Source: Thermoplasmatota archaeon (lineage in GTDB: Archaea > Thermoplasmatota > Thermoplasmata > UBA10834). Taken from it: 64,000 bases of DNA. Of this stretch, positions 8,100 through 64,000 are shown in pieces (positions within the stretch are counted from its first letter, which is position 1; each line of letters begins with the position of its first letter). A program made the position numbers and the translations under genes. The notes beneath the pieces are model-generated. The model was not told the DNA's origin and made no database searches. It saw only the letters and a list, made by a program, of their open reading frames with translations. The stretch is from NCBI GenBank assembly GCA_963818745.1, contig CAWFTI010000003.1, forward strand, positions 565,876 to 629,875, in the 5' to 3' direction.

Positions 8100-9400
8100 A
8101 TATGCATTTGGTTCTGTTGCGAAATTAGGAAGCGGCTCTTCACGCCGGAGCCTCCTCGCAACTCGCTCCATTCGGCTCCGACCGTGCGCCCTTCTCAGGG
8201 TCGTAGAGGATCATCATCACGTCATGCTGGAGCGCGCCGGGGTCGAACCGTAAACCCCCCACCATCTCTTTCGAGACGGCTGTCTGCAGCAGGTTGAGGC
8301 TGGCGTTGATGTGCCTGTCGAGACGCCAGCCGCACTCGCATACTGAACTCGGTGCCCTTTCGGGAATCCTGTAATCTCCCACACACCGGGCACTTCCTGC
8401 TGCTGTTCCTCGGGTCCACCTTGTGGACCGGTATTCCTCTCCACCTGGCCTTGTACTCGATGAACTGGTGGAGCTTCCTCCTCGGCCACATGCTCAACCG
8501 TCTGTTGAGGGCCTTGTCCTCCCTCGGCTTGAAGACCCCCTTCGAGGTCCTCGAGCACTATCGCCGCCGTGTTCTCCTCGGCGAAGTCGAGCACGGCGTT
8601 GGCCACCTGATGCATCCGGTACTCGACCCGGTCATGCTCCCTCTTACCCTCCCTCCTGCACAGACGCCTCGAAGTTCGCCGGTCGCGGGACTTCTTCTTC
8701 TGGAGGCGCTTCCGTCGGTCGTGGTGTTTCAGCTGTATCGCGGCCACTCGCGGGAAGGGTGCCTTCACGGGGGTACCTTTCCCTTCACTGACGAACACCC
8801 CGTCGAGGCTCCTCTCGTTCGTGTCGAGAGATACGACCGATTCCGGGACATACGGTCGTGGCTCCGTCTTCCGGAAGGCGATCACGACCCTGTCCGGGAA
8901 GAGCGCCAGGGAGCCGAGGGAGAGGGAGGGGTCGTCCAGGAATCCCTTGTGATACTCACTCAGGACCAGTTTGAGCTCGACGTGGCACCCGGCCCGGATA
9001 GGCAGGTCGATCACGCCTCTCTCGCGGTCGAGCTTGTACGCTTGATTCACCGTTTTCATGAACAACCTCTTGACATACGGTATCCGGTCCGTCTCCCCTT
9101 TCCTGACCTTCCTCCGATGGTTCTTGAGGACGCTTGCGGCGATCTCGAACACAGACACGAGGTGCTGAGCGTACATTCCGGGGTGCTCGGTCCTGAAGTC
9201 CTTGTATGCGAGCTTGTGTAGGGCGTACCTCGATGTCAAGCGCGTCTGCAGTCCCGCCCTTATGGCACGATTCACAGCAAGGCGGAAGTCCTCGAGAAGG
9301 AACCTGGCATGAGCGGGCAGCTCACCCTCGAGACGAAAAGACACCGCCTTGACGAGCATCGGGTGTTCCTAGGCGGTCGTGGTACTTCGGACTCATCCAC
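8100..9400 (-). mobile_element. IS200/IS605-family (IS1341-like) element carrying only tnpB; boundaries approximate, no tnpA and no terminal repeats recognised
   Basis: Contains the fragmented TnpB ORFs below. Flanked by a non-coding region (7964-8140) that would hold the right end and any omega-RNA. Confidence 0.5.
8140..9359 (-). CDS. tnpB: TnpB (IS605 OrfB, RuvC-like RNA-guided endonuclease family), split across three frames
   Basis: N-terminal 380 aa is OrfB-like. The zinc finger CPVCG lies in a second frame (8222-8497), and CECGWRLDRHINASLNLL (second Cys pair plus RuvC-III) in a third (8140-8382). Confidence 0.75.
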
Positions 9401-9739: not shown

Positions 9740-11440
9740 ATGGCCACGAATTCCTTCCTCACGCTCACCGAGTCGATCATGGAAGAGATTCTATCATGGA
9801 ACCCCTCATACGCGACCCACCTGGGCGTTCACAAGTACGACCATCTTCTGCCAGACCCCAGCCCTGAATCGTACGAGCACCAGGTCAAGCGCCTCGGGGA
9901 GTTCATCGAGATGATGCAGGGCACGTCGGAGTGCACGATGGCTTCCGAGGAGATACTGGACAGGGACCTCGCCGTGCACCTGTTCGAACTGAGGCTGCAC
10001 GAGATCCTGGCCCTGAGACACCACGAGCGGATGTCGCTCGTCGCAGACGAGATCGGCAGCTCCCTATTCTACCTGTTCGCGAGGGAGCATCTGAAGATCG
10101 AGGACAGGATGGAAAGGATCGCCTCCAGGCTCGATAAGGTCCCGCGGTTCGCGCAGGACTCGATGAGGTGCCTGGTCTCACCGTACCGCCTCTGGAACGA
10201 GGTCTCGCTCCAGACTGGCGCCGCGTTCCCGTCTTTCCTCAGGGTGATCGAGGGGATGGCCTTCGAGAAGCTGGGCGATTGCGACCTGACCAAGCGGCTG
10301 GCCGCAGCGTCCGCGAAGGCCGAGAAGGCGCTGGAGGAGTACGACAGGTGGCTGAAGGAGCAGGTGATGCCCAAGGCGGTCGACAGATACTCCGTCTCTC
10401 GGGAGGCCTTCGACCGATACATGGACCTGAAGCAGCTGGGCGTCACCGCAGAGCAGGCGCTCGAGATCGGCCAGGAATCGATCAAGGTCATCAACCGCAT
10501 GAAGGCAGACCTCGCGCGGAGGATAGTCCCCTCGGGGGATGTGCACGAAGCGATGGAGAAGGTGAAGGCAGACCATCCGACCAACTTCGAGGGAGTCCTG
10601 AAGGCGTACCGCGACTCGATCCGCGCCGCGCGTGAGTTCGTCATAGAGCACGAGATCGCGACCATGCCCATCGGGGAGAAGCTGGTCGTCATCGAGACCC
10701 CCGAGTTCATGAGGCACACCACGCCTTTCGCGGCCCAGATAGAGCCGGGCAAATTCACCACGGACAAGACGGGGCTGTTCCTGGTCACCCCGGACGATTC
10801 GAACCCCGCCCTCCTGAAGGAGCACTCGTACCGGGGGATAGCGAACACCAGCGTCCACGAAGGCTATCCCGGACACCACCTGCAGGGCATCTGCGGGAAC
10901 GAGAACCCGTCCTATGTGCGCGTCTTGAGCGGCGCGACCGACTTCGCGGAGGGCTGGGCGCTGTACTGCGAGGACATGATGCTGTCCCTGGGATACAACG
11001 ACACACCCGAGGGCAGGCTCGCGCAGCTGATCGACCTCAAGTTCAGGGTGGCCCGGGTCGTCGCCGAGGTCAAGCTCTCACGAGGCGAGATGACCGTGGA
11101 CGACGTCGCGGACATGCTCGTGAGGGAATGCTGCATGGAGGAGAGGGCGGCCCACAACGAGGCCGTGTGCTACGCCTACAGCCCCACATACTACATGTCG
11201 TACTACCTCGGCAAACTGAAGCTGATGCAGCTCAAGGACGATGTCGAGAAGGCCATGGGCCGGGAGTTCTCGCTCAGGTTCTTCCACGACACCATGCTCT
11301 ATGCCGGCTGCCTGCCGATCGACTACATGAGGAGGGTCCTCGCGATCAAGCTCAGGGAGGACTACGGGATAGAACTCGGGCCGGCATCGGAGCCGTTCTA
11401 CGAGTACTCCATGCGGAGGATACGCGCGGGGCTCGTCTAG
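9740..11440 (+). CDS. DUF885 family protein (putative metallopeptidase-like)
   Basis: Signature HEGYPGHHLQ and overall length (566 aa) typical of DUF885. Start MATNSFLTL. Confidence 0.8.
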   Translation: MATNSFLTLTESIMEEILSWNPSYATHLGVHKYDHLLPDPSPESYEHQVKRLGEFIEMMQGTSECTMASEEILDRDLAVHLFELRLHEILALRHHERMSLVADEIGSSLFYLFAREHLKIEDRMERIASRLDKVPRFAQDSMRCLVSPYRLWNEVSLQTGAAFPSFLRVIEGMAFEKLGDCDLTKRLAAASAKAEKALEEYDRWLKEQVMPKAVDRYSVSREAFDRYMDLKQLGVTAEQALEIGQESIKVINRMKADLARRIVPSGDVHEAMEKVKADHPTNFEGVLKAYRDSIRAAREFVIEHEIATMPIGEKLVVIETPEFMRHTTPFAAQIEPGKFTTDKTGLFLVTPDDSNPALLKEHSYRGIANTSVHEGYPGHHLQGICGNENPSYVRVLSGATDFAEGWALYCEDMMLSLGYNDTPEGRLAQLIDLKFRVARVVAEVKLSRGEMTVDDVADMLVRECCMEERAAHNEAVCYAYSPTYYMSYYLGKLKLMQLKDDVEKAMGREFSLRFFHDTMLYAGCLPIDYMRRVLAIKLREDYGIELGPASEPFYEYSMRRIRAGLV

Positions 11441-12015
11441 CCTTCCTTGTCCAGGATGTCGACCCACTCCTCCTCGCCCAGGGTCTCCTCGGCCTGCCAC
11501 GCGCCGGGCTTGTAGGAGTCCGCCATGAACGACTGGAGCATCGGCTCGACGCCCTTGACGGTCCTGCCGGTGCCGTTCCAGCGCTCGATCCTGCCCTTGT
11601 AGCGCTCCTCGATGTCCCTGAGGAGCATCGTGAGCGACTCGAAAACATCCTTCCGGGGCCATCCGGAGTATATCATCGCGATGTAGGCCGACTGCCCCTT
11701 CTCGATCATGACGTTCTTGTCGCCTATCTCCAGCTTCTTGAGCCCGACCTCTCCCGCCTGGAACGAGTCCTTCACGAACTCCTGCACGGCGGTGAACATC
11801 GCGCTCACGATGTCCTTGTCGATGCTGGTGTTCTCCTGCTTGGTGACATGGGCCATGAGCCTTCCGTCGTTGTGTATCAGGAAGATGTTCTCGAGCGCGT
11901 AGGGCCTCGGGATCCTGCTCGCGAGGAAGTACGCAGCCACGCCCGCGGCCAGCAGGAGCAGCGGGAACGAGTACGGATATCCGATGAGCTCGGCCATGGT
12001 CTTCTTGACGCCCAC
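11437..12015 (-). CDS. Membrane-anchored Roadblock/LC7-like domain protein; possibly the C-terminal part of the adhesin immediately upstream
   Basis: TM helix AELIGYPYSFPLLLLAAGVAAYFL, then the Roadblock-like alpha-beta pattern IFLIHNDGRLMAHV ... DKDIVSAMFTAVQEF ... GLKKLEIGDKNVMIEKGQSAYIAMIY. The reading frame is open only from a GTG, 1 nt out of phase with the end of the adhesin. Confidence 0.45.
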   Translation of the reverse strand: MGVKKTMAELIGYPYSFPLLLLAAGVAAYFLASRIPRPYALENIFLIHNDGRLMAHVTKQENTSIDKDIVSAMFTAVQEFVKDSFQAGEVGLKKLEIGDKNVMIEKGQSAYIAMIYSGWPRKDVFESLTMLLRDIEERYKGRIERWNGTGRTVKGVEPMLQSFMADSYKPGAWQAEETLGEEEWVDILDKEG

Positions 12016-15000
12016 CTTCGAAGGTCACGACGTTCGATTCGGCGCCGTCCGCGTCCCTCGCATATATCGTCACGGTGATGACGTCCACGCCGGCGGGCAG
12101 GCTGATGTAGAGGTAGTTGCCCACGACGGCCACGCTGGCCCCCGGCTCCGCGACTATGACGAGCTCGGAGAAGGGCGTCTCGCTGTCGGTGAAGTACATG
12201 TCGATCGCGTAGTGAGCGTTCCTCGGTCCTCCGGCGATGATGTGGTCGGGGATCGGCAGAGCGACAGGCGCGTCGTTAACGGGTATTACATACACAGTGA
12301 CCTGCCACGACGCCCACGCCCCGTGCGGGTCGAACACCTTGAACACGACGGCTTCGAACCCTGACCAGTTCGCCAGCGCGGTGAAGTTGACCACGCCCGA
12401 GGAGTAGATGGTCACCTGGATGTTCGTGTTCCCCGAGAAGAAGTAGCTGAACTCTTCGTCGTCCTGGTCGTAGAAGAGGAGGCTCAGGTCGATCGAGTTG
12501 TTCAGGTAGGTGTCCTCGGGGAATGAGACCAGATCGTAGTATGGCACCGGGTCGACCACCGCGGGGGAGTAGTTGTCGCTGACGAGCACCTCGAACTCGT
12601 TCGCGCCGGACGCCCCGAGCGGGTCGCTGACCTCGATCGCCACGGTGACGATGTACGGCTCCGTGAAAACGGCGCCGGTGAGGTTGGCAGGGAACAGGAG
12701 CTCCAGGAATCCGTCGGCGTAGGTGACGTAGGAGCTGCTGAGGTCGAATGCGAGTTCGTCCAAGGTGTGATCCGCATCGGACACGTAGAGCGCGACGTCC
12801 AGATACGTCGCCGTGTCGTACCTGACATGCACGGTCTCGATGTCGGCAACGACAGGCGCGTCGTTCACCGCGATGACGGTCACCACTATCGTGTCCGTCT
12901 TGAGGGCGCCTATCGGGTCGGTGGCCGTGAGGGTGCCCTCGGTCGAGCCCGACCATTCCGTCGGCGCGGATATGTACACCTCGTGGTTTTCGAGTATGTC
13001 GATGACGATGTTGACGAAGCCGTATGTGTAGACGAGGTACTCGCTGTCGATGTCGAAGAAGTAGAGGTCGAGGTCGAACGCGAAGTGGTCGACCTCGCCC
13101 TCGTACAGCGTCACGTCGGGGAGCGACTCATTGAGGGCCGGGGGAGTGTCCTCCGTGACCCTTACCACCGTGTTCAGAGAGTCAGAGTTCGTGCCGTCCA
13201 CGGTCTCGCCCTCGAGCGCATCGGTCAGGGTGAACTCGACTATCTCGAAGTAGGTCTCCTCCTGGGGGTCCTTCGGGAAGATGAAGGTCCCGATGAGCCT
13301 GTCGAAGAAGACGTTGTCCGGGAAGTCGGAGAGCATCCTCAGCTCGTCCCTCGGGTTGTCGACGTCCTTGACATAGTAGTCGTAGTCGAACGTGTAGGCG
13401 GTGTCGAACTTGACGTACAGCTCCGTGGGCGGGCTGTTGACGAACCGCGGCCTGTCGTTCACGGGCTGGATGCTCACGGCGACGTCCTGGTACGTCGAGA
13501 AGCCCTGAGGGTCCCTGACCCACAGGCGGAACTCGTCGTCCCCGAACGCGTCGGGCTGCGTGAGGAACTTCATGAGCGATTCCGAGGTGCTGTCGTGGAT
13601 GACCAGGTAGAGGGATGTGTCGACGCCCTCGACATACCACCTGAGACTCGAGCGTGCCGTTCGCGTGGTGCCAGTATGTCGACAGGCTGAAGGTCCAGTT
13701 GCTGTCCTCGGTCGAGATCTGCATCGGTATCGTGCCAAGCCACGGGCCGTCGAGAGCGTTGATTACCGTGACTGCGAGGGTGTCGCTAATGCTGCCCACG
13801 CGCACCTCGACCGATCCGACCTCTGGGATGTAGCCCGCCGTGTAGACCGCATTCGGGCCGATCCCGGTCACCTGGCCGGAGGTGTTCGTGCTCCAGATCG
13901 CCCCTGGGATGGCCACAGGATTGCCGAGGTTGTCGTACCCGAACGCCTCGAGCTCCTCGCTCTGTCCCTCGCGTATCGTCAGGGGCCCTGCAGGCACTAT
14001 CTCGATGCGCGCTAGGATGCCCGGGTTCACGGTGATCAGTGCGGTGTCCGAAGCGGAGGTCTCGTCGTCTGTGCATGTGATGGCTCCGACGCCGATCCCG
14101 AGCGCGGAGAATGTGATCGTAAGGCCGGACCCTGCTATCGACCCGATGTCCCCCGCGAGGGTCCAGTTGGGGGTCCAGCTGTTGTTCGTGAAGCCGGAGG
14201 AGTCCCTGCCGACCGCGGTGAACTCCTGCGAATCGCCCGAGAATATCACGAGGGACGAAGGAGATATCTCGATGTCGACGACCGGCCCCGCACGGACAGT
14301 GACCGGAGAGCTCCAGCCGAAGTGCGAGTTGCTGCTCGCCCTGATCAGTATCGTCTCCTCGGCGTAGTCGTACATCTGATCCGGTATCAGTCACCTGGCC
14401 CCCGTCGGAGGCGGTGATGTCCACCGATGTCACGGACAGGGAGCCCGCGCTCGGCGAGACGGCGTCCTCGAGATAAGATGCAAGGGACACGGTCCCGACC
14501 CAGTTCGGTATGACGGCGTCCGAGGCGTCGCGGGCGCTCACGGTCATCGTGAAGGCGGTGTCCACGAGCACGGAGGACGGGGCCGACACTGCGAAGTGGT
14601 CGGCCGTGACCACGTAGATGCTGCAGCTCAGCCAGGTCGGAGAGCCCTGGGGATCGTACGCACGAATGGTGATGTCGTATGTCCCGTTCTCCAGGCCGAC
14701 AAGGAGCGTGCTGAACACGGACCACGCGGGATTGGAGGAAGTGTCCGTCCTGGAAAGCGTCATCGACACTGGCCCGAGGACCACGGTGCTGTTCGAGGAG
14801 TACGCGACCTCGGCGTCCACGCCGACGATCTCGTAGGTCCCGAACGGGTTCGACACGTTGGCGAGCACGGTGACGTCCTCGCCGTCGGAGAACACGCTCC
14901 TCGCGGACCCGGTGGAGTCCTCGGTCCAGACGGCGTCGGCAGAGATGAACGTGGTCGTGGGGAACCGTATGTAGGAATCGTAGATGTTCTGGTCGTACAT

Positions 15001-15639
15001 GACCTGCAGGGCGTCGTTCAGGGAGTCGCCCCGCCTGATGGTCATCACGAGCTGGTGGTCCGGATCGAGCAGGTAGTCCACGCCCGCCACGGTCGCGTTG
15101 TAGAGCTTGAACTCGGAGTATATCGGCCCCTGGAGAGGTATCGTGACCGTCCCGATCTCGGTCCACAGAGACGGGTCGGCGAGCTGGCCGGGGGCGCAGT
15201 CGGAGAAGATGACAGTCATGAGGGTCGCGGACTCGTTGTCCCTCGACTTGGCCCAGACGTACGCGCTCATGTCCCCCAGGATCTGGACCTGGGAGTTCAC
15301 CGCGGGGTCGAGCACCCAGAAGTGGCGCCAGTGCTCAGAGGGGTTCCACTTCCTGATCGATATGCCCATCGAACCGTCGCCGTCGTAGTCCGCCCAGGAA
15401 GGGTTGTACGGGCCCGAGGAGTTCAGCCAATCGTAGTAGCTCGTCGAGTAGACCGCGCCCTCGTGGAGGTGGAAGGTCCTGGTCCAGGAGGGCAGCGATT
15501 CGGCAGAAGCATCGTTGGAGAGCAGTCCGGAGGGGGGGACCATGGACGAGGCTAGCATGACGAGTGCGAACAGCGCTGTCAACAGCCTCGCGGCCATTGG
15601 AACTCCCTTGGTGTTCTTCGCTATAAGTGCGTTTTCCAC
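12016..15639 (-). CDS. Large secreted surface adhesin with cadherin-like (VNDAP) and Ig-like repeat domains, ~1,200 aa; frameshifts at ~13640 and ~14385; no in-frame stop at the 3' end
   Basis: Signal peptide MAARLLTALFALVMLASS. Repeated domain starts IQPVNDRPRF, VIAVNDAPVV and VIPVNDAPVA, with a Thr/Ser/Val-rich beta-sandwich composition throughout. Three ORFs (13786-15639, 13182-14375, 11078-13738) join colinearly. The last credible residues are ...ESNVVTFEGG at ~12010. Confidence 0.7.
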
Positions 15640-15759
15640 CTGAGTCTGCCCCTACGACCTAGTCTCTCGCACACCGTTTATAGCCGATGCTGGGGTTATA
15701 AGCATTCTCAGGTCGTTATCAGTGTTGGGAACGGCCACTGGCGCGTATACTGGCGGGGG

Positions 15760-16317
15760 CTACTTCGAGCCCATCTTGTCGGCTATCGCCACTCCGAGCG
15801 CCTTGAACAGGGGTTCGACGTTCTGGCCGGTCTTCGCGCTCGTCATGAACGCCTTCGACTTGTACTTGGCCGCCAGCTCCTCGATCTCCGCGTCCTTGAC
15901 CACGCGCTCGTTCTCCATGTCCGCCTTGTTCCCCGCGAACACGATCGGGACATCGCCCGCGACATCCGTCAGCGCCTTGATCCAGTACCTCAGCTCTTCC
16001 AGGGACTCCTTGTTGGTGAGGTCGCATACGGCGATCGCCCCGTGCGCGCCGAAGAAGTACGCCTCCCTGAGGAGCTCCCTGAACCCCTTCTGGCCCATGA
16101 TGTCCCAGACGAGCATCATGACCTTGACGTTGGACCCGGGCTCCTGGACCTCCACGATCTTCTTGGTGACCTTGGTACCGATAGTAGCGATGTATCTGTC
16201 ATCGAAAACGTCGAGCACGAACCTCTTGATGAGGCTGGTCTTTCCAACGCCCGCGTCCCCGATAAAGCAAACTTTGACTTTCATCAGGTCGTCTTCATTC
16301 ATCCAAGTACCCTCCAT
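15760..16317 (-). CDS. Small GTPase, Ras superfamily, Rab-like
   Basis: G1 GDAGVGKTS, switch I YIATIG (the Rab/Ran TIG), G3 WDIMGQ, G4 NKAD, G5 SAK; 185 aa. Confidence 0.85.
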   Translation of the reverse strand: MEGTWMNEDDLMKVKVCFIGDAGVGKTSLIKRFVLDVFDDRYIATIGTKVTKKIVEVQEPGSNVKVMMLVWDIMGQKGFRELLREAYFFGAHGAIAVCDLTNKESLEELRYWIKALTDVAGDVPIVFAGNKADMENERVVKDAEIEELAAKYKSKAFMTSAKTGQNVEPLFKALGVAIADKMGSK

Positions 16318-17521: not shown

Positions 17522-18895
17522 ATGGGCTATTCCGACCTCGTCGGCTGGATGTTCAACCTCGAGCGGTTCGGCATCAAGCTCGGCCTCGAGAACATGAGGG
17601 AGTTCTCATCGAGGATCGGGGACCCGCACCTCGATTTCAGGACCGTGCACGTGACGGGCACGAACGGGAAGGGCTCCGTGTGCGCGTTCACCGCGGAGAT
17701 CCTGAGGAAGCACGGGCTCAAGGTCGGGCTGTACACCTCCCCGCACCTGGTGGATTTCAGGGAACGGATCAGGATAAACGGCCAGGACATCCCCGAGAAC
17801 GACGTCGTCCGCCTGGGCGAGGAGCTCAGGGGCGAGATGGAGGAGATGGCCGCGGCTGACCCCGAGAAGCAGCTGACTTTCTTCGAGTTCACGACCGGGC
17901 TGGCGTTCAAGCACTTCAGCGAGAAGGACGTGGACATCGTGGTCACGGAGGTCGGCATGGGCGGGAGGCTCGATGCGACCAACATCATCACGCCAGAGGT
18001 CTCGGCCATCACGCGCATAGGGCTCGAGCACACGAACTACCTCGGACGCACGATCCCGGAGATCGCGAGGGAGAAGGCCGGGATCATCAAGGACGGAGTG
18101 GGGGTGGTCACCTGCGAGAGGGCGCTCGAGGCGCTCTCGGTGATAGAGGGCGCGTGCAGGAAGCGGGGATGCGCGATGAGGAGGCTCGGGAAGGAGTTCG
18201 ACGTCGCCAACATCGCCCGCACCCTGAAGGGGACCACGTTCGACTACCGAGGGACCAGGACCCTCCCGAGGCTGGAGACCAGGCTGCTCGGGGCGTACCA
18301 GGCCGAGAACGCCGCGGCCGCGATCGCGATGGTCGAGGAGCTCGCGACGAAGGACCCGCTGATCTCGGAGGAGGACATCAGGAAAGGACTCGCGGCCACC
18401 AAGTGGCCCGGGAGGCTGGACGTCGTCTCGAAGAAGCCGTTCGTCATGTTCGACGGGAGCCACAACCCGGACGGCGTGGCGGCGACCGTGAAGGAGCTCA
18501 CGACCCTCGGGGTCGTCCCGATGACCTACGTCGTTGCATGCATGGACGACAAAGACGCGAGGGGCATCGTGCGGGCTTTGGCGCCGACGGCGGAGAGGAT
18601 CATAGCGACGCAGGCGATGTACAAGAGGGCGCTGCCGGCCGCCGCCCTGGGAGCCATCGTCAGGGAGGAGTTCTCCGGGAGCAGCGAGGTGGTCACTCCA
18701 TCGGTCAAGGCCCTGGAACTCGGCCTCTCGGACATCCGGGGCAAGGGTCTGTGCGCCATCGGTTCGCTCTACCTCGTCGGCGAGGCGATCCAGTGGTGGA
18801 GGAACAGGAGGAGGACGGGGCCGCCCACAGTCCTCCGCACAAGGTATAAATCGCCCCTGTGTATTGAGCCTCAGCAGCACGCGGTGGTAGTGTAG
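17522..18895 (+). CDS. folC: Folylpolyglutamate synthase / dihydrofolate synthase, Mur-ligase family
   Basis: HVTGTNGKGS P-loop, Mur-ligase middle and C-terminal domains, DGSHNP. The Arg-rich C-terminal tail overlaps the tRNA and may be an artefact. Confidence 0.85.
   Translation: MGYSDLVGWMFNLERFGIKLGLENMREFSSRIGDPHLDFRTVHVTGTNGKGSVCAFTAEILRKHGLKVGLYTSPHLVDFRERIRINGQDIPENDVVRLGEELRGEMEEMAAADPEKQLTFFEFTTGLAFKHFSEKDVDIVVTEVGMGGRLDATNIITPEVSAITRIGLEHTNYLGRTIPEIAREKAGIIKDGVGVVTCERALEALSVIEGACRKRGCAMRRLGKEFDVANIARTLKGTTFDYRGTRTLPRLETRLLGAYQAENAAAAIAMVEELATKDPLISEEDIRKGLAATKWPGRLDVVSKKPFVMFDGSHNPDGVAATVKELTTLGVVPMTYVVACMDDKDARGIVRALAPTAERIIATQAMYKRALPAAALGAIVREEFSGSSEVVTPSVKALELGLSDIRGKGLCAIGSLYLVGEAIQWWRNRRRTGPPTVLRTRYKSPLCIEPQQHAVVV
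18843..18853 (+). promoter_or_regulatory. BRE/TATA-like box aaggtataaat ~28 bp upstream of tRNA-Gly, lying inside the folC coding sequence
   Basis: A purine-rich BRE-like dinucleotide plus GTATAAAT at canonical archaeal promoter distance from the mature tRNA 5' end. Confidence 0.45.
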
Positions 18896-18954
18896 CCTGG
18901 TTATCACTTGAGCTTGCCAAGCTCAAAACTCGGGTTCAAATCCCGACGACCGCA
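18881..18954 (+). tRNA. tRNA-Gly (anticodon GCC), no encoded CCA
   Basis: Cloverleaf folded by hand: acceptor GCGGUGG/CGACCGC with one G-G mismatch at 6:67; anticodon stem UGAGC/GCUCA; loop UUGCCAA (U33, GCC, A37); T-arm UCGGG-UUCAAAU-CCCGA; GG in the D-loop; discriminator A. Confidence 0.8.
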
Positions 18955-19076
18955 CTCCGATTCTCTGCACCTCGGTCCCCCCGAAGGCGCCATCGACTCC
19001 AGGAAGGTTCTCGTATGAGATGCGCGATGTCACTAGGCGATTGCGGACCGCGGGTCCCGCACCCTGGTGATGATCG

Positions 19077-23216: not shown

Positions 23217-25852
23217 TCACTGGTACACGAGCACCGACAGCCCGGCGACAGCTGATCTGACTCGAGCTCGCCCCGCTCCGATGCTCAGATTCCTCTCGAC
23301 CTCGTAGAACTCCGGCGACAGCTCGATGGTCCTGCCGTCGCCCATCGTCGAGCTCGATCCCCTTGTCCAGGCCGGCCAGCTCGGATCCGCTGAGGCAGCT
23401 CCGGCGAGCCTTTCGGCTATCTCCTTCGCATCCTTCTTGAACGCCGGGCCGAGCTTGGCGTGGACAGGCTTCACGCGGGAGACCGTCTCCTTCAAGGTCG
23501 ACGTCTTCTCCAGGATCTCGAGTTCCGCCGCCTTCAACGTGGCTTTGATGTCCTCCTCCGACCCGGCCATCAGCCTGGTCGCCTCCTGGCCCACGATCTC
23601 GATCCTCGCAATCTCGGCGTTCAGGGACAGTGCCCTTCGCGGCCTTCCACGCCCGGACCGCAGCCACCACTCCCTTGACCGCCTCGCCCTTCTCGTTCGC
23701 CTGTGCGATCCGCAGGAGGCGCCTCGGGCCAGTCCGACACATGGATGCTGATTGCTGGCTCGGACTGCCTGAAGTTCAGCTGATAGGCGTCCTCCGCGAC
23801 GTGGGGCAGGAACACGGACATCATCTTCAGCAGGCCCAGGCCGACCGTGTAGAGCGCGTACTTCGCGCCCTCGTCGTTCTCGGAATAGGCCCTGTGCTTG
23901 ACGAGCTCGACGTAGTTGTCCGCGAACTCGTGCCAGAGGAAGTCCTCGGTGATCGCCATGGACTGGTCGAACCTGTACTTGTCCGCGCTCTTCTCGAACT
24001 CCCGCACCGCGTTCCCGAACCTGCTCAGGATCCAGGCGTCCACGGGTCGGATGGTCTCCGGCATCGTCGGGCTTCACCTTGCAGACCGAGCCGACCATCC
24101 TCATCACGTTCCAGGTCTTCGTTGCGAGCCTTCCCCCGCGCACGAGCTCCTGCTCCTTGAAGGCGTGGTCGATGCCCAGGGAGCAGGTCGCCGCGTAGTA
24201 GCGCATCGCGTCGCTCCCGTACTTCTCGAGCAGAGGGATCGGGTCGATCGCGTTGCCGGCAGAGGCGTGCATCGGAGAGCCGTCGGGGGCCATGATGAAC
24301 CCGTGTATCATCGTCTCCTTCCACGGCTTCTCGCCGATTAGGAGCATCTCTCTCAGGATGGTGTAGTACGCCCATGTCCTGATGATCTCAAGGCCCTGAG
24401 GGCGCATCGACATCGGGTAGAGCTTCTTGAACAGCTTATCGTCCCGTTCCCAGAAGGTGTTGTACAGTGGCGAGATGCTCGAGTCCATCCACGTGTCGAA
24501 CACATCCGTGGAGCCGATGTACTCGCCCCCGCAGACCGCGCACTTCTCCTTCCTCGGCGGCCGGGATGTCGGGTCGACGTAGCATTCGTCCTCCTCCGCG
24601 AGCAGGACTTCACCGCAGTCCTGGCACTCCCAGAGCGGGATCGCGGTCGCGAAGTACCGCTGCCTCGAGACGACCCAATCCCAGGCGAGGGAGTTCACCC
24701 AGTTCTGTATCCTGACCTTCATGAACTCCGGGTTCCAGGTGATCTTGTCTATCATCGCCAGGACCTGGTCCTTGAACTGGAGGCTCCTGACGAACCACTG
24801 GGGGACCTTGAGGAACTCGATGGGCGAGTGGCATCTCCAGCAGACTCCGACGCTCTGGTCCAGATCCTCCTGCTTCACGAGCAGCCCTGCGGCCTTCATG
24901 TCCTCGATGATGGCCTTCCTGGCGTCGGCGACGGTCATGCCAGCATACTTGCCGGCGAGCTCCGTCATCTTCCCGGACTCGTCTATGCCCTTCTCGAGCG
25001 GCAGGTTGTACTTCATGATCCACTCGAGGTCGCCCTTGTCGCCGATCGAGCATATCATCACGGTCCCAGTGCCGAAGGCCGGGTCGACCTTGGGGTCCGC
25101 CACAACCTTGACCTTCTTGTCGAACACGGGCGTGACGAGCTCCTCGCCTACGAGATTAGCCTTGGATGGGTCGTCTGGATGCACGGCCACGAGTAGGCAC
25201 GTGCAGAGCAGCTCCGGACGCGTGGTGGCGATCTGCACCTCGCGGCCGCTCCCAGCAACGCGGAACTTGATGTAGTTCAGCTTGGTCTTCCTGGGCTCGT
25301 ACTCGACCTCCGCCTCCGCGAGCGCGGTCCCGCACCGCGTGCAAAAGTTGATCGGGAAGTGCCCCTTGTAGACGAACCCCTTCTTGAACATGCGTATGAA
25401 GGAGACCTGGGTGAGCCTGCGGTAGTACTCTGCGTCCGTCTGGTAGTATATCGTGGGGTCCATGCTCTCGCCGAGCATCTCGAACTGCTTTGTCATCTCC
25501 CCGATGTGCTTCTCCGCGAACTCGCTGCACATCTTGACGAACTGCTGTCGGGGCACCTCTGAGGCCTTGATGCCCATCACCTGCTCCACCTTCACCTCGA
25601 CGGGCGTGCCGTTGACATCGAAGCAGAGCGGGAAGAACACGTTGTACCCTTTCAGGCGCTTGTACCTCGCGGCGAAATCTATCACTGTGTATCCGTACGC
25701 GTGACCGAGGTGCAGCGCGCCCGAGGCGTACCTGGGCGGGGTGTCTATGCTGTAGACCTCCTTGTCGGACTCAGGGTCGAAGCGGTATATCCCCCACTCC
25801 TTCCACTTCGCCTGCCACTTCGGCTCGCCTCGCGCCAATCGTACTGGGCCAT
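23217..25852 (-). CDS. valS: Valyl-tRNA synthetase; at least three frameshifts (~25830, ~24070, ~23715)
   Basis: The N-terminus MAQYDWRE(shift)PKWQAKWKEWGIYRF matches the ValRS start. HIGH-type HLGHAYGYT, editing domain, KMSKS region, and anticodon-binding region (23621-24064 frame: WILSRFGNAVREF...FLWHEFADNYVE). Confidence 0.9.
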
Positions 25853-60921: not shown

Positions 60922-63037
60922 ATGCCAGATTCACCGGTGATCGACAAGGAACTCCTGGTCTCGTCGCTCCAGGACGGAGTCTTCGTATGCAAGAAGACGG
61001 GCGAGCTGCTGTGCTTCAACCCCGTGATGGCGAAGATGCTGGGATATCCGGCCGACAGGTTCGCCAGCAGGAACATGGCGAAGGACCTCGCGGAGAGGGA
61101 GCTCGAGTGGAGGGCGCTGATATCCCTCATCGAACAGGGCAGCCCGATAGCAGACTACGAGATGAAGTTCAGGAAGGCCGACGGGACGACCGCGCACATA
61201 GCGCTCTCGGCGGTCACGTACAAGGACCCCAGTGGCATGCCCATCGGCATCGCCGGCGTGCTCAGGGACATATCCACGCGCAAGGGCGTGGAGATCGACC
61301 TCAGGGAGAAGGCGTTCAGGATAGACATCATGAACAAGATCGCCAAGCTCGCCGGGGCGAACATAGACGTCAGGCGGGTGCTCCTGGGCATCAGCGAGGA
61401 GCTCAGGAAGCTCATCAACTTCGACCAGCTCAGCATGTGCGTGACGGAGGAGAAGGGACGGCATGTGGAGGTGTACGTGCCGGACCCGGGGAACTCCGCC
61501 GCGGCGAAGGTGCTCGGCCGGGTGCCCTTCGAGGGCAGCCTCGTCGAGAAGCTGAAGTACGGCGGCAAGGCGGTCATCATCGAGAAGGACGCGAACAGGA
61601 AACTGTTCTCCGAGTTCGGGGTCCTCGACACGACGAAGACCAGCTCCATGATCGCCGTGCCCCTCACCAGCAGAGGACGCGTGCTCGGATCATTGAACAT
61701 ATCGCACTCGAAGCAGGGGGAGTACAACTGGGAGAGCGCCGAGGTGCTCCAGATGGTTGCCGACCAGGTCGCGGGCCTGATCGACAACATGGTCCTCCTC
61801 ACGACCCTCGAGAACAAGATCAAGCTCCACGAGACCCTGCTCAAGTCCGGGGTTGAGCTCCAGAAGGCCATCAGCACGGAGCAGATATACGGCGCGATAG
61901 CGGCGCACATAACCGAGGTCGTGCCGTGCAAGGACCTGTCGTTCTACATGGTCGACTGGCAGAAGCGCCTCATATACCCCGTGCACGCGGTCGGCACATA
62001 CACGGACGAGATCATGTCCGCCCCGGGAGGGCTCGACGATGGCATCGTGGGCGTGGTGGCCCAGACGGGCAAGGCGGAGTTCGTGGACGATGTCGACTCC
62101 GACCCGAGGGCTGCCGACGTGCCCGGCACACCGTACGAGCACAACTCGATGCTGGCGATCCCGCTCACAGGCAGCGAGGGCGTCCTGGGCGTCCTCGAGC
62201 TGTACAGGGACAGAGGCCAGGTCTTCTCGATGAGCGACCTCGATGCGGGGATGCTGTTCGCGCAGCAGGCCGCGATATCCCTCCAGAACTCCAAGCTCCT
62301 GGCGAGGATACAGGAAGCCAAGAAGGAGATCGAGATGCTGAACGACCTCATGTTCCACGACATCAACAACTACAACTTCGCCACGCTCAACTACGTCGAG
62401 CTGATCGCCAAGAGCCCGGACGTGCCGCACGCGTACAAGCCGTACCTGGACAAGTCGCTCCAGCTCATCAGGCAGAACGCGAAGCTGATCGAGAACGTCA
62501 AGAAGCTGACCAAGATAGGCGCCATGGAGACGAAGAGCTTCGTGCCGGTCAACCTCTCGGACGTGCTCAGGAAGATCATCGTCCGCCGTGAGCAGCGCCT
62601 CGCCATCGAAGAGGGTCAGCATCACGTGCAACGTGCCCGAGACGGGCGCGTTCATCATGGCCAACTCGCTCGTCGACGAGCTTTTCGTGAACCTGCTCAA
62701 CAACGCCGTCAAGTACGACCCCCACGAGGAGGTCGAGGTGGAGGTCGACTGCTCCAAGGTCCTGGAGGACGGCAAGCCCTGCTGGAAGGTGTGCGTCGCC
62801 GACCACGGGTACGGCATCCCGGACGACAAGAAGGCCAGGCTCTTCCAGAAGTACGTCCGCCTCAAGCCCGACTCGAACGTCGCGGGGACCGGCCTCGGGC
62901 TGTCCATATGCCGGGCGCTCTCGGACAAGTTCGCCGGGCGGATATGGGTCGAGGACAGGGAGAAGGGCAAGAGCGAGCTGGGGGCGAAGTTCTGCGTCGT
63001 GTTCCCGGCGGCCAGGCACCAAGAGGAGAAGGCATAG
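60922..63037 (+). CDS. Sensor histidine kinase: PAS, GAF, GAF, HisKA-like, HATPase_c; frameshift at ~62585
   Basis: N-terminal PAS (FVCKKTGELLCFNPVMAKMLGY); two GAF-like domains; H-box FHDINNYN; ATPase domain (N-box LLNNAVKY, G1 DHGYGI, G2 GTGLGLS) in the 62588-63037 frame. Confidence 0.8.
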
Positions 63038-64000
63038 TGCCCATCGATCCGAGAGCGACCCCGTCGGACCACGGCGCTGCGGACAAGCGGTTCACAGTCT
63101 CCGTTTCAAGATGTTCTTCCTACGAGCCAGTAGTTGTCGAACGCGCGGTCATGGAATCCGTCAAGGCGCTCGGCGGCATCGAGAGGTTCGTGAAGCCAGG
63201 CGAAACGATCCTGGTCAAGCCCAACATGCTCTCGGCGAGGGCGCCCGAGGACGCGGTCACGACGCATCCGGAGGTCGTGAGAGCGGTCATAAGGATGGTA
63301 AAGGCCGCAGGGGCGACGCCGATAGTCGGCGATTCCCCCTCGGGGCTCTCGACGGACGGCATCCTCGACAAGCTCGCGGAGAGGACCGGGATAGCGAGGG
63401 TCTGCGAAGAGGAGAAGGTCGAGTTCGCCCATTTCACCGAGTCGAAGAACGTGCGGTTCGAGCGCGGAGTGGTCGCCAAGTCGTTCGAGCTCACGACCGT
63501 CCTGGACAGGGTCGACGGAGTCGTCTCCGTCGCGAAGATGAAGACCCACACGCTCACGGGGATCACGGGCGCCGTCAAGAACCTGTTCGGGCTCATCCCC
63601 GGCCTGAAGAAGGCGGAGTACCACTTCAGGATGAAGGACAAGGAGGCGTTCTCGGCGATGCTGGTCGACCTCGCGGAATGCGTCCGGCCGAGGCTGACCG
63701 TCATGGACGCCGTGCGTCGGCATGGACGGCGACGGACCTTCGGGGGGCACCAAGAAGGACATCGGCCTGGTGATCGCCTCGGACGACGTGCACGCCCTCG
63801 ATGCGTTCTTCCTGCACTCCGTGGGGGCGGATGTGTCATCCGTCCCGACGGTGAGGATCGCGAGGGAGCGCGGACTGGGGCCGAAGGACATCGATGAGGT
63901 GCGGGTCGTCGGGGACGGGCGCGCTGCGGATGAAGCTGCGACGGCTTCAGGATGCCCTCGACCGCGCAGCAGTACGGCCGGATACCGATGGCGCTCGGGA
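63038..64000 (+). CDS. DUF362 domain protein (3' end beyond the window); frameshift at ~63715; start uncertain (GTG at 63038 or ATG at ~63150)
   Basis: FTVSVSRCSSYEP...VMESVKALGG...FVKPGETILVKPNM and TVMDAV(shift)GMDGDGPSGG...ASDDVHALDAFF follow the DUF362 pattern. Confidence 0.65.

Follow-up and report, generated by a model that had tools for sequence, protein, structure and literature searches.

Pairing of a longin or Roadblock domain with a small GTPase underlies membrane identity in eukaryotes (TRAPP, Mon1-Ccz1, Ragulator) and polarity in bacteria (MglA/B), and the discussion of such pairings in archaea has so far centred on Asgard lineages. Prokaryotic Roadblock and GTPase genes of the MglA–MglB type are often neighbours (PMC4316618). 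In Asgard archaea, the genes for GTPases and for the candidate regulators of these lie apart, so that partners cannot be assigned (PMC10933270), and for archaeal Rab-like proteins, which have no known membrane anchor, a targeting mechanism is not known (PMC4915359). Here, we analysed a stretch of 64,000 nucleotides from a Thermoplasmatota archaeon (GCA_963818745.1, contig CAWFTI010000003.1, positions 565,876 to 629,875), which is called the window throughout this text. Its minus strand carries at 11437-16317 two genes that constitute a two-component module: a soluble Rab-like small GTPase and, directly downstream of it, a surface glycoprotein with predicted type-I topology and a longin-like cytoplasmic tail. 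A preliminary description of this DNA had listed three consecutive genes (GTPase, secreted adhesin, transmembrane-Roadblock protein) but had suspected that the latter two encode a single polypeptide. We found that the two reading frames indeed form one gene and the locus is thus made up of two genes, not three. The coordinates of all features are summarized in Table 1.

The MglA–MglB and Rag–Ragulator systems resemble the arrangement proposed here in that the same superfold regulates or scaffolds a Ras-superfamily GTPase. The Streptomyces conservon (CvnA sensor kinase, CvnB Roadblock protein, CvnC DUF742 protein, CvnD GTPase) also brings together a membrane sensor, a small GTPase and a protein of the Roadblock superfold (PMC4316618), but here a single polypeptide comprises both sensor and platform, the predicted fold is longin rather than Roadblock, and the host is an archaeon. 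Neither a histidine kinase nor a DUF742 gene was found beside the pair, whose neighbours are an asparagine-synthase-like gene, FolC and a DUF885 gene, and an assignment to the conservons was rejected. The eukaryotic and Asgard longin platforms (TRAPP Bet5/Trs23, Mon1-Ccz1, DENN, FLCN-FNIP, GATOR1 NPRL2/3, Lokiarchaeal 8yqg) share no detectable sequence similarity with the tail, which, unlike in these systems, follows the transmembrane helix of a giant extracellular protein and occurs in Thermoplasmatota. Moreover, the GTPase is encoded next door here, whereas no such operons are reported for the Asgard archaeon MK-D1 (PMC10933270). In the SRα SRX–SRβ complex the GTPase carries the transmembrane anchor and the longin-like domain is soluble, which is the reverse of the present situation. 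The longin SNAREs (Sec22b, Ykt6, VAMP7) follow the order longin, SNARE motif, C-terminal transmembrane helix, which is also opposite to that found here; the large protein has no SNARE heptad region and the SNAREs have no large ectodomain. Finally, the ArvA/ArvB/ArvC system of Haloferax volcanii likewise involves an archaeal small GTPase at the cell membrane with conserved neighbours (PMC10927574). Compared by description, ArvA is Arf-like and carries an amphipathic helix, its partners are the small ArvB and the Zn-ribbon protein ArvC, and the gene order differs. The module described here joins the longin/Roadblock–small GTPase pairing to a receptor-like ectodomain. By its predicted structure the tail is of the longin type, and the module was not assigned to Roadblock/LC7, MglA/B or the conservons. 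The preliminary description knew of no prokaryotic module with this architecture, and in the literature outside subscription journals we also found no account of archaeal surface proteins that carry a transmembrane-anchored longin tail, or of such a tail paired with Rab-like GTPases. In public annotations, members of the tail family are called 'hypothetical'.

In the list of open reading frames (ORFs), the GTPase ORF is followed by four overlapping ORFs (13786-15639, 13182-14375, 11078-13738, 11437-12015), which lie in three different frames and give a protein-like translation over part of their length only. When the difference in G+C content between third and second codon positions (GC3 minus GC2) was plotted, we observed one unbroken coding signal with phase shifts at about 14380, 13650 and 12010. 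The first two frame switches (~14389 and ~13653) are absent from the preliminary description and were found with this plot and with tblastn of full-length orthologues. At the last junction, the adhesin frame (...NVVTFEGGRQED) stays open from ~12010 to 11078, and the transmembrane frame opens at 12024 behind a TGA (12025-12027), with GTG 12015 as its first start codon followed by MAELIGYPYSFPLLLLAAGVAAYFLASR. This agrees with the earlier statement that the adhesin frame runs without a stop for ~900 bp and that the transmembrane frame opens where its credible sequence ends.

A metagenome contig (JGI 3300036985, 7,141 nt, here called L089) contains the exact GTPase sequence and is 98.6% identical to the window over 7.1 kb. 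Downstream of the GTPase, it carries one unbroken gene of 1,385 amino acids (aa), which reads ...NVVTFRVGVKKTMAELIGYPYSF.... The nucleotide alignment of the window with this contig shows four single-base gaps only, and three of them are additional bases of the window located exactly at the three junctions. These bases lie outside homopolymer runs, which speaks against the homopolymer error that had been held responsible before. The preliminary description was right in assuming a single-base shift at the last junction, but the more parsimonious candidate for the additional base is the G in ttcGaagg (~12019) instead of a G in the ggtggg run, and it is one of three such insertions. Deletion of any one base between 12024 and ~12010 brings the frame back. 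The fourth gap (window 10791, L089 ~6282) is a base absent from a G run in the DUF885 gene of L089; owing to this missing base the gene is split there into 174 + 292 aa, and it is intact in the window (606 aa).

The orthologues point in the same direction. With the 192-aa piece we retrieved 19 homologues from metagenomes (67-78% identical), many of which extend in frame upstream into Ig-like sequence, as in P0002 (...NEVTFEIGVKKTMAQLIGYPF). An exhaustive profile search yielded the full-length orthologues P0020, P0023 and P0027 (1,402, 1,406 and 1,409 aa), which carry the domain at their extreme C-terminus and are collinear with the four frame pieces of the window (tblastn). The stitched window protein aligns with the orthologue of L009, the nearest genome with an intact gene, without gaps at the second and third junctions and with a one-residue gap at the first. 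The gene is uninterrupted in more than 30 orthologous genomes, and one polypeptide is also found in P0001-P0012. In nearly all orthologous loci spanning the whole gene, the tail-containing ORF is unbroken over 3.8-4.3 kb. It is broken in L019, where the ORF restarts at 8258, and in L054, where the tail match ends at residue 54. Taken together, ectodomain, transmembrane helix and cytoplasmic domain are one polypeptide.

The locus might alternatively be read as two genes downstream of the GTPase, a secreted adhesin that ends at a stop codon and an independent transmembrane-Roadblock protein that starts at GTG 12015 or ATG 11997. A TGA four codons ahead of the GTG, a GGTGG 14 nt ahead of the ATG and some metagenome gene calls beginning with MAEL... 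(P0005, P0010) would fit this possibility. However, L089 and dozens of orthologues read through the junction. In addition, the domain ends no more than 40 residues from the C-terminus in 130 of 168 proteins (the 19 homologues of the first search and the best hits among the cluster representatives), and lengths of 800-2,400 aa predominate among the best hits. The base-level comparison with L089 refutes the two-gene reading, and we regard its probability as negligible.

Most likely, the three frame breaks are assembly errors and do not indicate pseudogenisation. That the window copy is a true pseudogene, decayed through three +1 insertions, might be argued from the fact that all three window-specific indels of the 7.1-kb comparison fall into one gene and outside homopolymer runs. 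However, the chance that three out of three indels are located within 4.2 of 7.1 kb is about 0.2 by our own arithmetic. After removal of the three bases the gene has no stops, and its codons differ from those of L089 by 47 synonymous and 22 non-synonymous changes; 48 of the 73 substitutions occupy third codon positions, a pattern that indicates purifying selection. There is no amino acid change in the transmembrane helix, the tail or the GTPase, the latter being 100% identical. Moreover, the essential leucyl-tRNA synthetase gene of the window is frameshifted as well, with tRNA-synt_1 (1.5e-83) and Anticodon_1 (4.2e-27) in different frames, and for this reason we consider the indels across the window to be most likely assembly errors. 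These data make a pseudogene very unlikely. A window-wide GC3 scan for frame switches was noisy, since antisense frames mimic the signal, and two candidates were confirmed via Pfam. In a PAS-GAF sensor histidine kinase gene, HATPase_c is located in another frame. The first frame of this kinase gene continues stop-free into a DUF362 domain, which points to at least one further frameshift.

The corrected protein consists of a signal peptide, an Ig/cadherin-like ectodomain of ~1,170 aa, one transmembrane helix and a cytoplasmic domain of ~155 aa. Hydropathy analysis (19-mers) detected only two hydrophobic segments, the N-terminal signal peptide (residues 1-27) and the transmembrane helix (residues ~1208-1229). 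A GGAG is present 6 nt ahead of the ATG at 15596. Because of the signal peptide and the single transmembrane helix, a type-I topology is predicted, with the N-terminus outside and the C-terminus inside. In the membrane-proximal part, a VND[AR]P motif closes each module (residues 713, 911 and 1107; codons from ~13462, ~12868 and ~12280), which is in line with the cadherin-like VNDAP repeats reported before. Here, a Big_9 match exceeds the Pfam cut-off (3.8e-8, 34.5 vs 23.6 bits). A Cadherin_4-like match stays just below it (7.5e-5, 23.6 vs 25.1 bits; the orthologue P0020 reaches 30.5 bits), and a 'tandem-95 repeat' match in NCBIfam is also below threshold (64 vs 90 bits). The N-terminal ~650 aa gave no domain match in Pfam. 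The ectodomain contains 17 N-x-S/T sequons and evolves fast, whereas the cytoplasmic domain is highly conserved: identity with the L009 orthologue is 62% for the ectodomain and 79% for the tail.

For the tail, no significant match was obtained in Pfam, NCBIfam and PDB sequence and profile searches (best PDB match the unrelated MotA, E=0.1), and neither the tail nor 10 family members matched any Pfam model at E<=0.1, that of Roadblock/LC7 (PF03259) included. When we searched with a profile of the tail itself, the number of cluster representatives found was 4,169 with a threshold of E<=1e-3 and 2,304 with E<=1e-10 (clusters at 50% identity). A further homologue search with a diverse alignment gave 33 matches, which are all called 'hypothetical protein'. 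The named members are all from Thermoplasmatota, and in most members the domain forms the C-terminal end of a giant surface protein.

AlphaFold2 modelling with 38 diverse family members yielded a β-β-α-β-β-β-α-α-α topology with a predicted local distance difference test score (pLDDT) of 90.2 and a predicted template modelling score (pTM) of 0.83; an earlier model (20 close homologues, shallow alignment, pLDDT 64) was kept out of the fold search. DSSP assigned strands to residues 7-15, 20-25, 58-64, 67-73 and 77-84 and helices to residues 34-51, 89-105 and 123-131 of this model, and it can be seen that the five-stranded sheet is sandwiched between helices in the order β-β-α-β-β-β-α-α that defines longin domains. 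The top structural neighbours of the model are longin domains (Sec22b, score 13.2; Ykt6, 12.9; AP-3 σ, 12.8; VAMP7, 12.4; TRAPPC2L, 11.9; sedlin, 11.5; the Lokiarchaeal longin domain 8yqg, 11.0), with Lst4, SRα, NPRL2/3 and Mon1-Ccz1 scoring lower. Foldseek agreed, the best TM-scores (0.6-0.7) being those to Ykt6 and Sec22b. According to the model, the tail has a longin-type fold; this assignment rests on the fold, and sequence homology to known longin families was not detected in Pfam, NCBIfam and PDB. Longin and Roadblock domains are told apart by an N-terminal helix in the latter and extra C-terminal helices in the former (PMC10933270). In the model, the additional C-terminal helices are present and the N-terminal helix is absent, so that the α-β-β-α-β-β-β(-α) pattern with the N-terminal helix on the sheet was not found, and membership in Roadblock/LC7 was rejected. 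The Roadblock/LC7-like domain of the preliminary description is supported at the level of the Roadblock/longin superfold, but the domain is predicted to be of the longin type. Helix α1 (D.DI.S.MLTAVQ.FVKDSF) and the β1-β2 hairpin are most conserved throughout the family. The corresponding helix face is the GTPase-binding site of longin/Roadblock platforms according to Levine 2013, as referred to in PMC10933270.

The GTPase exceeds the cut-offs of Pfam Ras (6.2e-38, 130 vs 21.6 bits) and of NCBIfam small_GTP (TIGR00231; 2.8e-19, 69.5 vs 42.5 bits). G1 (GDAGVGKT), switch I (with the T of YIATIGT), G3 (WDIMGQ, including the catalytic Gln), G4 (NKAD) and G5 (SAK) all have the canonical form, which places the protein in the Ras superfamily, as had been concluded before. 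The best 60 PDB sequence matches are all Rabs (top match Ypt6, 3.6e-29), and NCBI names the orthologues 'Rab family GTPase'. The segments IGTKV, MMLVW, GFRELL, YFFGA and AVCDLT partly resemble RabF1-5 when compared by eye with the consensus. However, where a Rab sensu stricto has a hypervariable tail with prenylatable cysteines, the C-terminus (...IADKMGSK) contains no Cys, as is reported for other archaeal Rab-like proteins (PMC4915359), and sequence inspection revealed no other obvious membrane anchor. The true start codon is probably ATG 16302, which would shorten the protein to 180 aa: orthologous GTPases begin with M[ASN]D[ED]DLMK and a GGAGG lies 8 nt ahead of this ATG. The N-terminus is short and acidic, and by eye the orthologues are very highly conserved. 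MglA proteins have a non-canonical G3 motif without Asp (TxxGQ-type). With its canonical DIMGQ and without an adjacent Roadblock gene, the pair was not assigned to MglA/MglB.

A scan covering one genome per species turned up 180 relatives, and the best 80 all come from Thermoplasmata/Thermoplasmatota metagenome-assembled genomes. Among 38 orthologous loci, 32 have a GTPase gene directly upstream of the big gene and in the same orientation, an arrangement also seen in L001-L004. Five of the other six loci end at a contig edge, and the remaining one (L019) has its GTPase where expected, next to a broken big gene; the GTPase is therefore adjacent in every orthologous locus open to evaluation. The distant paralogues (32-44% tail identity) are located in unrelated genomic contexts. 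Here, nine GTPase genes were counted within 1.5 kb (96.9 kb in total) compared with one in 290 kb farther off, which by our own arithmetic corresponds to a ~27-fold enrichment (Poisson P ~1e-10). The gene orders include two tandem GTPases upstream (L070, L083), three upstream (L008), divergent pairs (L005, L060, L078) and downstream GTPases (L064, L079, L082). These arrangements are in part phylogenetically dependent and amount to some four or five different types. When the neighbours were clustered all against all, the Ras-like GTPase was the most recurrent family. The rearranged gene order together with the enrichment argues against plain synteny, and the linkage is statistically strong and tolerates rearrangement. 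The co-conservation of GTPase and adhesin that the preliminary description had asked for is thus observed. No GTPase–tail-domain fusion was found among the 168 family proteins.

At two loci, the genes for the Rab-like GTPase(s) and for the giant protein with the longin tail are directly accompanied by a gene for a V4R/XylR_N protein (L064 10843-11328, L008 3808-4254), and V4R genes were found only there when 88 loci and the window were searched. V4R is a prokaryotic superfamily related to TRAPP Bet3/TRAPPC3 (PMC10933270). Longin, Bet3-like and Rab-like folds thus occur within one prokaryotic gene cluster at these loci. Some of the linked GTPases are extended (L078 278-1285 minus strand, L079 10492-11373, L060 951-1799); one has an N-terminal TPR-repeat region and the others C- or N-terminal extensions of ~100 aa.

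From these sequence data we consider it plausible, with the balance tipping slightly in favour, that the tail and the GTPase work together as a membrane receptor–GTPase switch. We infer that they interact physically. The membrane-anchored longin domain, which by analogy with other longin/Roadblock platforms is probably dimeric, would dock the GTPase at the membrane, would bias its nucleotide state and might act as a guanine nucleotide exchange factor, as a GTPase-activating protein (GAP) or as an anchor specific for one nucleotide state. In an outside-in mode, events at the ectodomain such as binding or clustering could be transmitted to the GTPase; in an inside-out mode, the state of the GTPase could govern the surface protein. 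Docking to the tail would, in addition, account for the arrival of an unprenylated archaeal Rab-like GTPase at the membrane.

Several observations weigh against this proposal. Synteny within the orthologous group extends over the entire neighbourhood (FolC, asparagine-synthase-like gene, DUF885), and adjacency within this group alone is therefore weak evidence. No GTPase was found within 10 kb in 35 of 42 paralogue-type loci, and soluble proteins without a transmembrane helix but with two or three domain copies exist; both findings imply that the domain needs no dedicated adjacent GTPase. The family alignment shows no invariant arginine or universally conserved Arg finger, which gives no indication that the tail works as a classical GAP. 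For longin domains there are also roles unrelated to GTPases, in SNAREs and in the σ/μ subunits of adaptor complexes. Finally, the sequence between the genes suggests that the big gene has its own promoter and that the promoters of the two genes are separate. When we aligned 13 orthologous intergenic regions, a block of ~65 nt turned out to be far better conserved than the flanking coding DNA (~67-73% identical). It reads GCCAG-TAC-CCGTTCCCA...TGATAAC...GAGAAYGCTTATAA.CCCAGC....GGCTATAAA and probably represents the BRE (B recognition element)/TATA promoter of the big gene plus an upstream operator-like or structured element. If the block with GCTTATAA and GGCTATAAA is such a promoter, the pair may be co-localised rather than co-transcribed.

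On these grounds, the longin-like tail could act independently of the GTPase, as a module for dimerisation, sorting or anchoring by which giant surface proteins are attached to the secretion/S-layer assembly machinery or to a scaffold in the cytoplasm, with adjacency reflecting inherited synteny or co-regulation and not direct contact. The GTPase-free paralogue loci, the multi-copy proteins and the promoter-like element would be accounted for in this way, and the top structural matches do include SNARE and adaptor-complex longins, not GTPase regulators. Set against this are the enrichment of GTPases within 1.5 kb of paralogues despite rearranged gene order, the rank of the GTPase as most recurrent neighbour family and the V4R/Bet3-like genes within the cluster at two loci. 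We regard an independent tail as possible but somewhat doubtful.

A different explanation would make the GTPase an ArvA-type vesicle-forming or membrane-remodelling enzyme and would assign to the giant protein the part of a cargo or marker, not that of a regulator. In Haloferax a small GTPase drives the formation of extracellular vesicles and its homologues are widespread in archaea (PMC10927574); longin domains also occur in vesicle coat and SNARE proteins. However, ArvA, set apart by description, is Arf-like, carries its amphipathic helix at the N-terminus and is followed by arvB and arvC (PMC10927574). The GTPase studied here is Rab-like by its best matches and has a different N-terminus, and no small genes of the arvB/arvC type lie between or after the pair, which makes this explanation improbable.

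If tail and GTPase do form a switch, unprenylated archaeal Rab-like GTPases would have a plausible route of membrane targeting, and the giant ectodomain–transmembrane–longin architecture would provide a prokaryote with a link from its surface to a GTPase switch. As a wider and tentative suggestion, to which we give clearly less than even credence, the Thermoplasmatota, a non-Asgard phylum, may own a large unnamed receptor-like family in which an anchored longin domain recruits and regulates a dedicated Rab-like GTPase, with V4R/Bet3-like proteins joining in some lineages. Such a system would be an equivalent, at the prokaryotic plasma membrane, of the eukaryotic TRAPP-type logic of longin, Bet3 and Rab, or would be related to it. 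Neither Pfam nor NCBIfam has a model for the tail, which defines more than 2,300 clusters at E<=1e-10, so that a sizeable part of archaeal 'dark matter' would gain a hypothesis on structure and function. The locus supplies a defined syntenic pair of one GTPase and one longin tail, and the small size of both (~155 aa and 180 aa) makes them suited to direct biochemistry.

Table 1. Positions of the features of the GTPase–surface protein locus and of further features of the window
Feature	Positions	Strand	Remarks
Rab-like small GTPase	15760-16317	-	185 aa as called
Single large gene, predicted type-I membrane protein	11437-15596	-	1,385 aa after correction; window copy over four frames
Signal peptide MAARLLTALFALVMLASSMVPPSGLLS	15516-15596	-	Residues 1-27; hydrophobic 19-mer
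Membrane-proximal ectodomain, three ~197-aa cadherin/Ig-like modules	12020-13645	-	Pfam Big_9, Cadherin_4
Single transmembrane helix PYSFPLLLLAAGVAAYFLAS	11917-11976	-	Hydropathy; helix 16-34 in first AlphaFold2 model
Cytoplasmic longin-like domain, β1β2α1β3β4β5α2α3α4 (model)	11443-11898	-	Family motif FLIHxDGRL...D.DI.S.MFTAVQEFVKDSF...GLKKLE.G...W.G
Frameshift 1	14386-14392	-	One base more than L089 (~14389)
Frameshift 2	13650-13656	-	One base more than L089 (~13653)
Frameshift 3, junction of the preliminary description	12012-12024	-	One base more (~12019): window ACCTTCGAAGGTGGG, L089 ACCTTC-AGGGTTGG
Conserved intergenic block, GTPase stop to big gene	15677-15743	-	GCTTATAA 15696-15703, GGCTATAAA 15677-15685
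Leucyl-tRNA synthetase, split	23217-25838; 23621-24064	-	
PAS-GAF sensor histidine kinase	60922-63897	+	
HATPase_c part of the kinase	62588-63037	+	
IS605 OrfB/TnpB-like ORF	8217-9359	-	Weak Pfam match, 8.8e-4
tRNA-Gly (GCC)	18881-18955	+	

Several minor observations concern the tail family. The last ~12 residues of the window protein (EEEWVDILDKE, 11440-11475, minus strand) are acidic and near-invariant in the orthologous group (W184, V185, I187), not family-wide, and may constitute a lineage-specific binding motif. The multi-copy proteins (P0025, P0028 and P0035; loci L046, L049, L053, L059) comprise 1,300-2,400 aa, carry their two or three domain copies ~500 aa apart and have no clear transmembrane helix, although P0035 has a borderline hydrophobic segment within its second domain. 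Some multi-copy proteins also match CARDB, TPR or DUF5915. In L046, L049 and L059, where the GTPase is absent, they are encoded directly downstream of FolC; in the window, FolC is two genes away from the GTPase. DUF835 recurs with the tail family, as a separate gene beside the GTPase in L005 (4344-5267) and fused C-terminally to the transmembrane–longin-like unit in P0065 (L007 1-1648). The JGI label 'OOP family OmpA-OmpF porin' on the C-terminal fragments P0005, P0013, P0015 and P0016 is without sequence support.

Outside the locus, the translation of the TnpB-like ORF is of low complexity beyond residue ~270 and there is a switch in the frame plot close to 8530; this ORF is probably also frameshifted or decayed. 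Immediately behind the FolC-like gene lies the tRNA-Gly gene; no other RNA gene was detected in the window.

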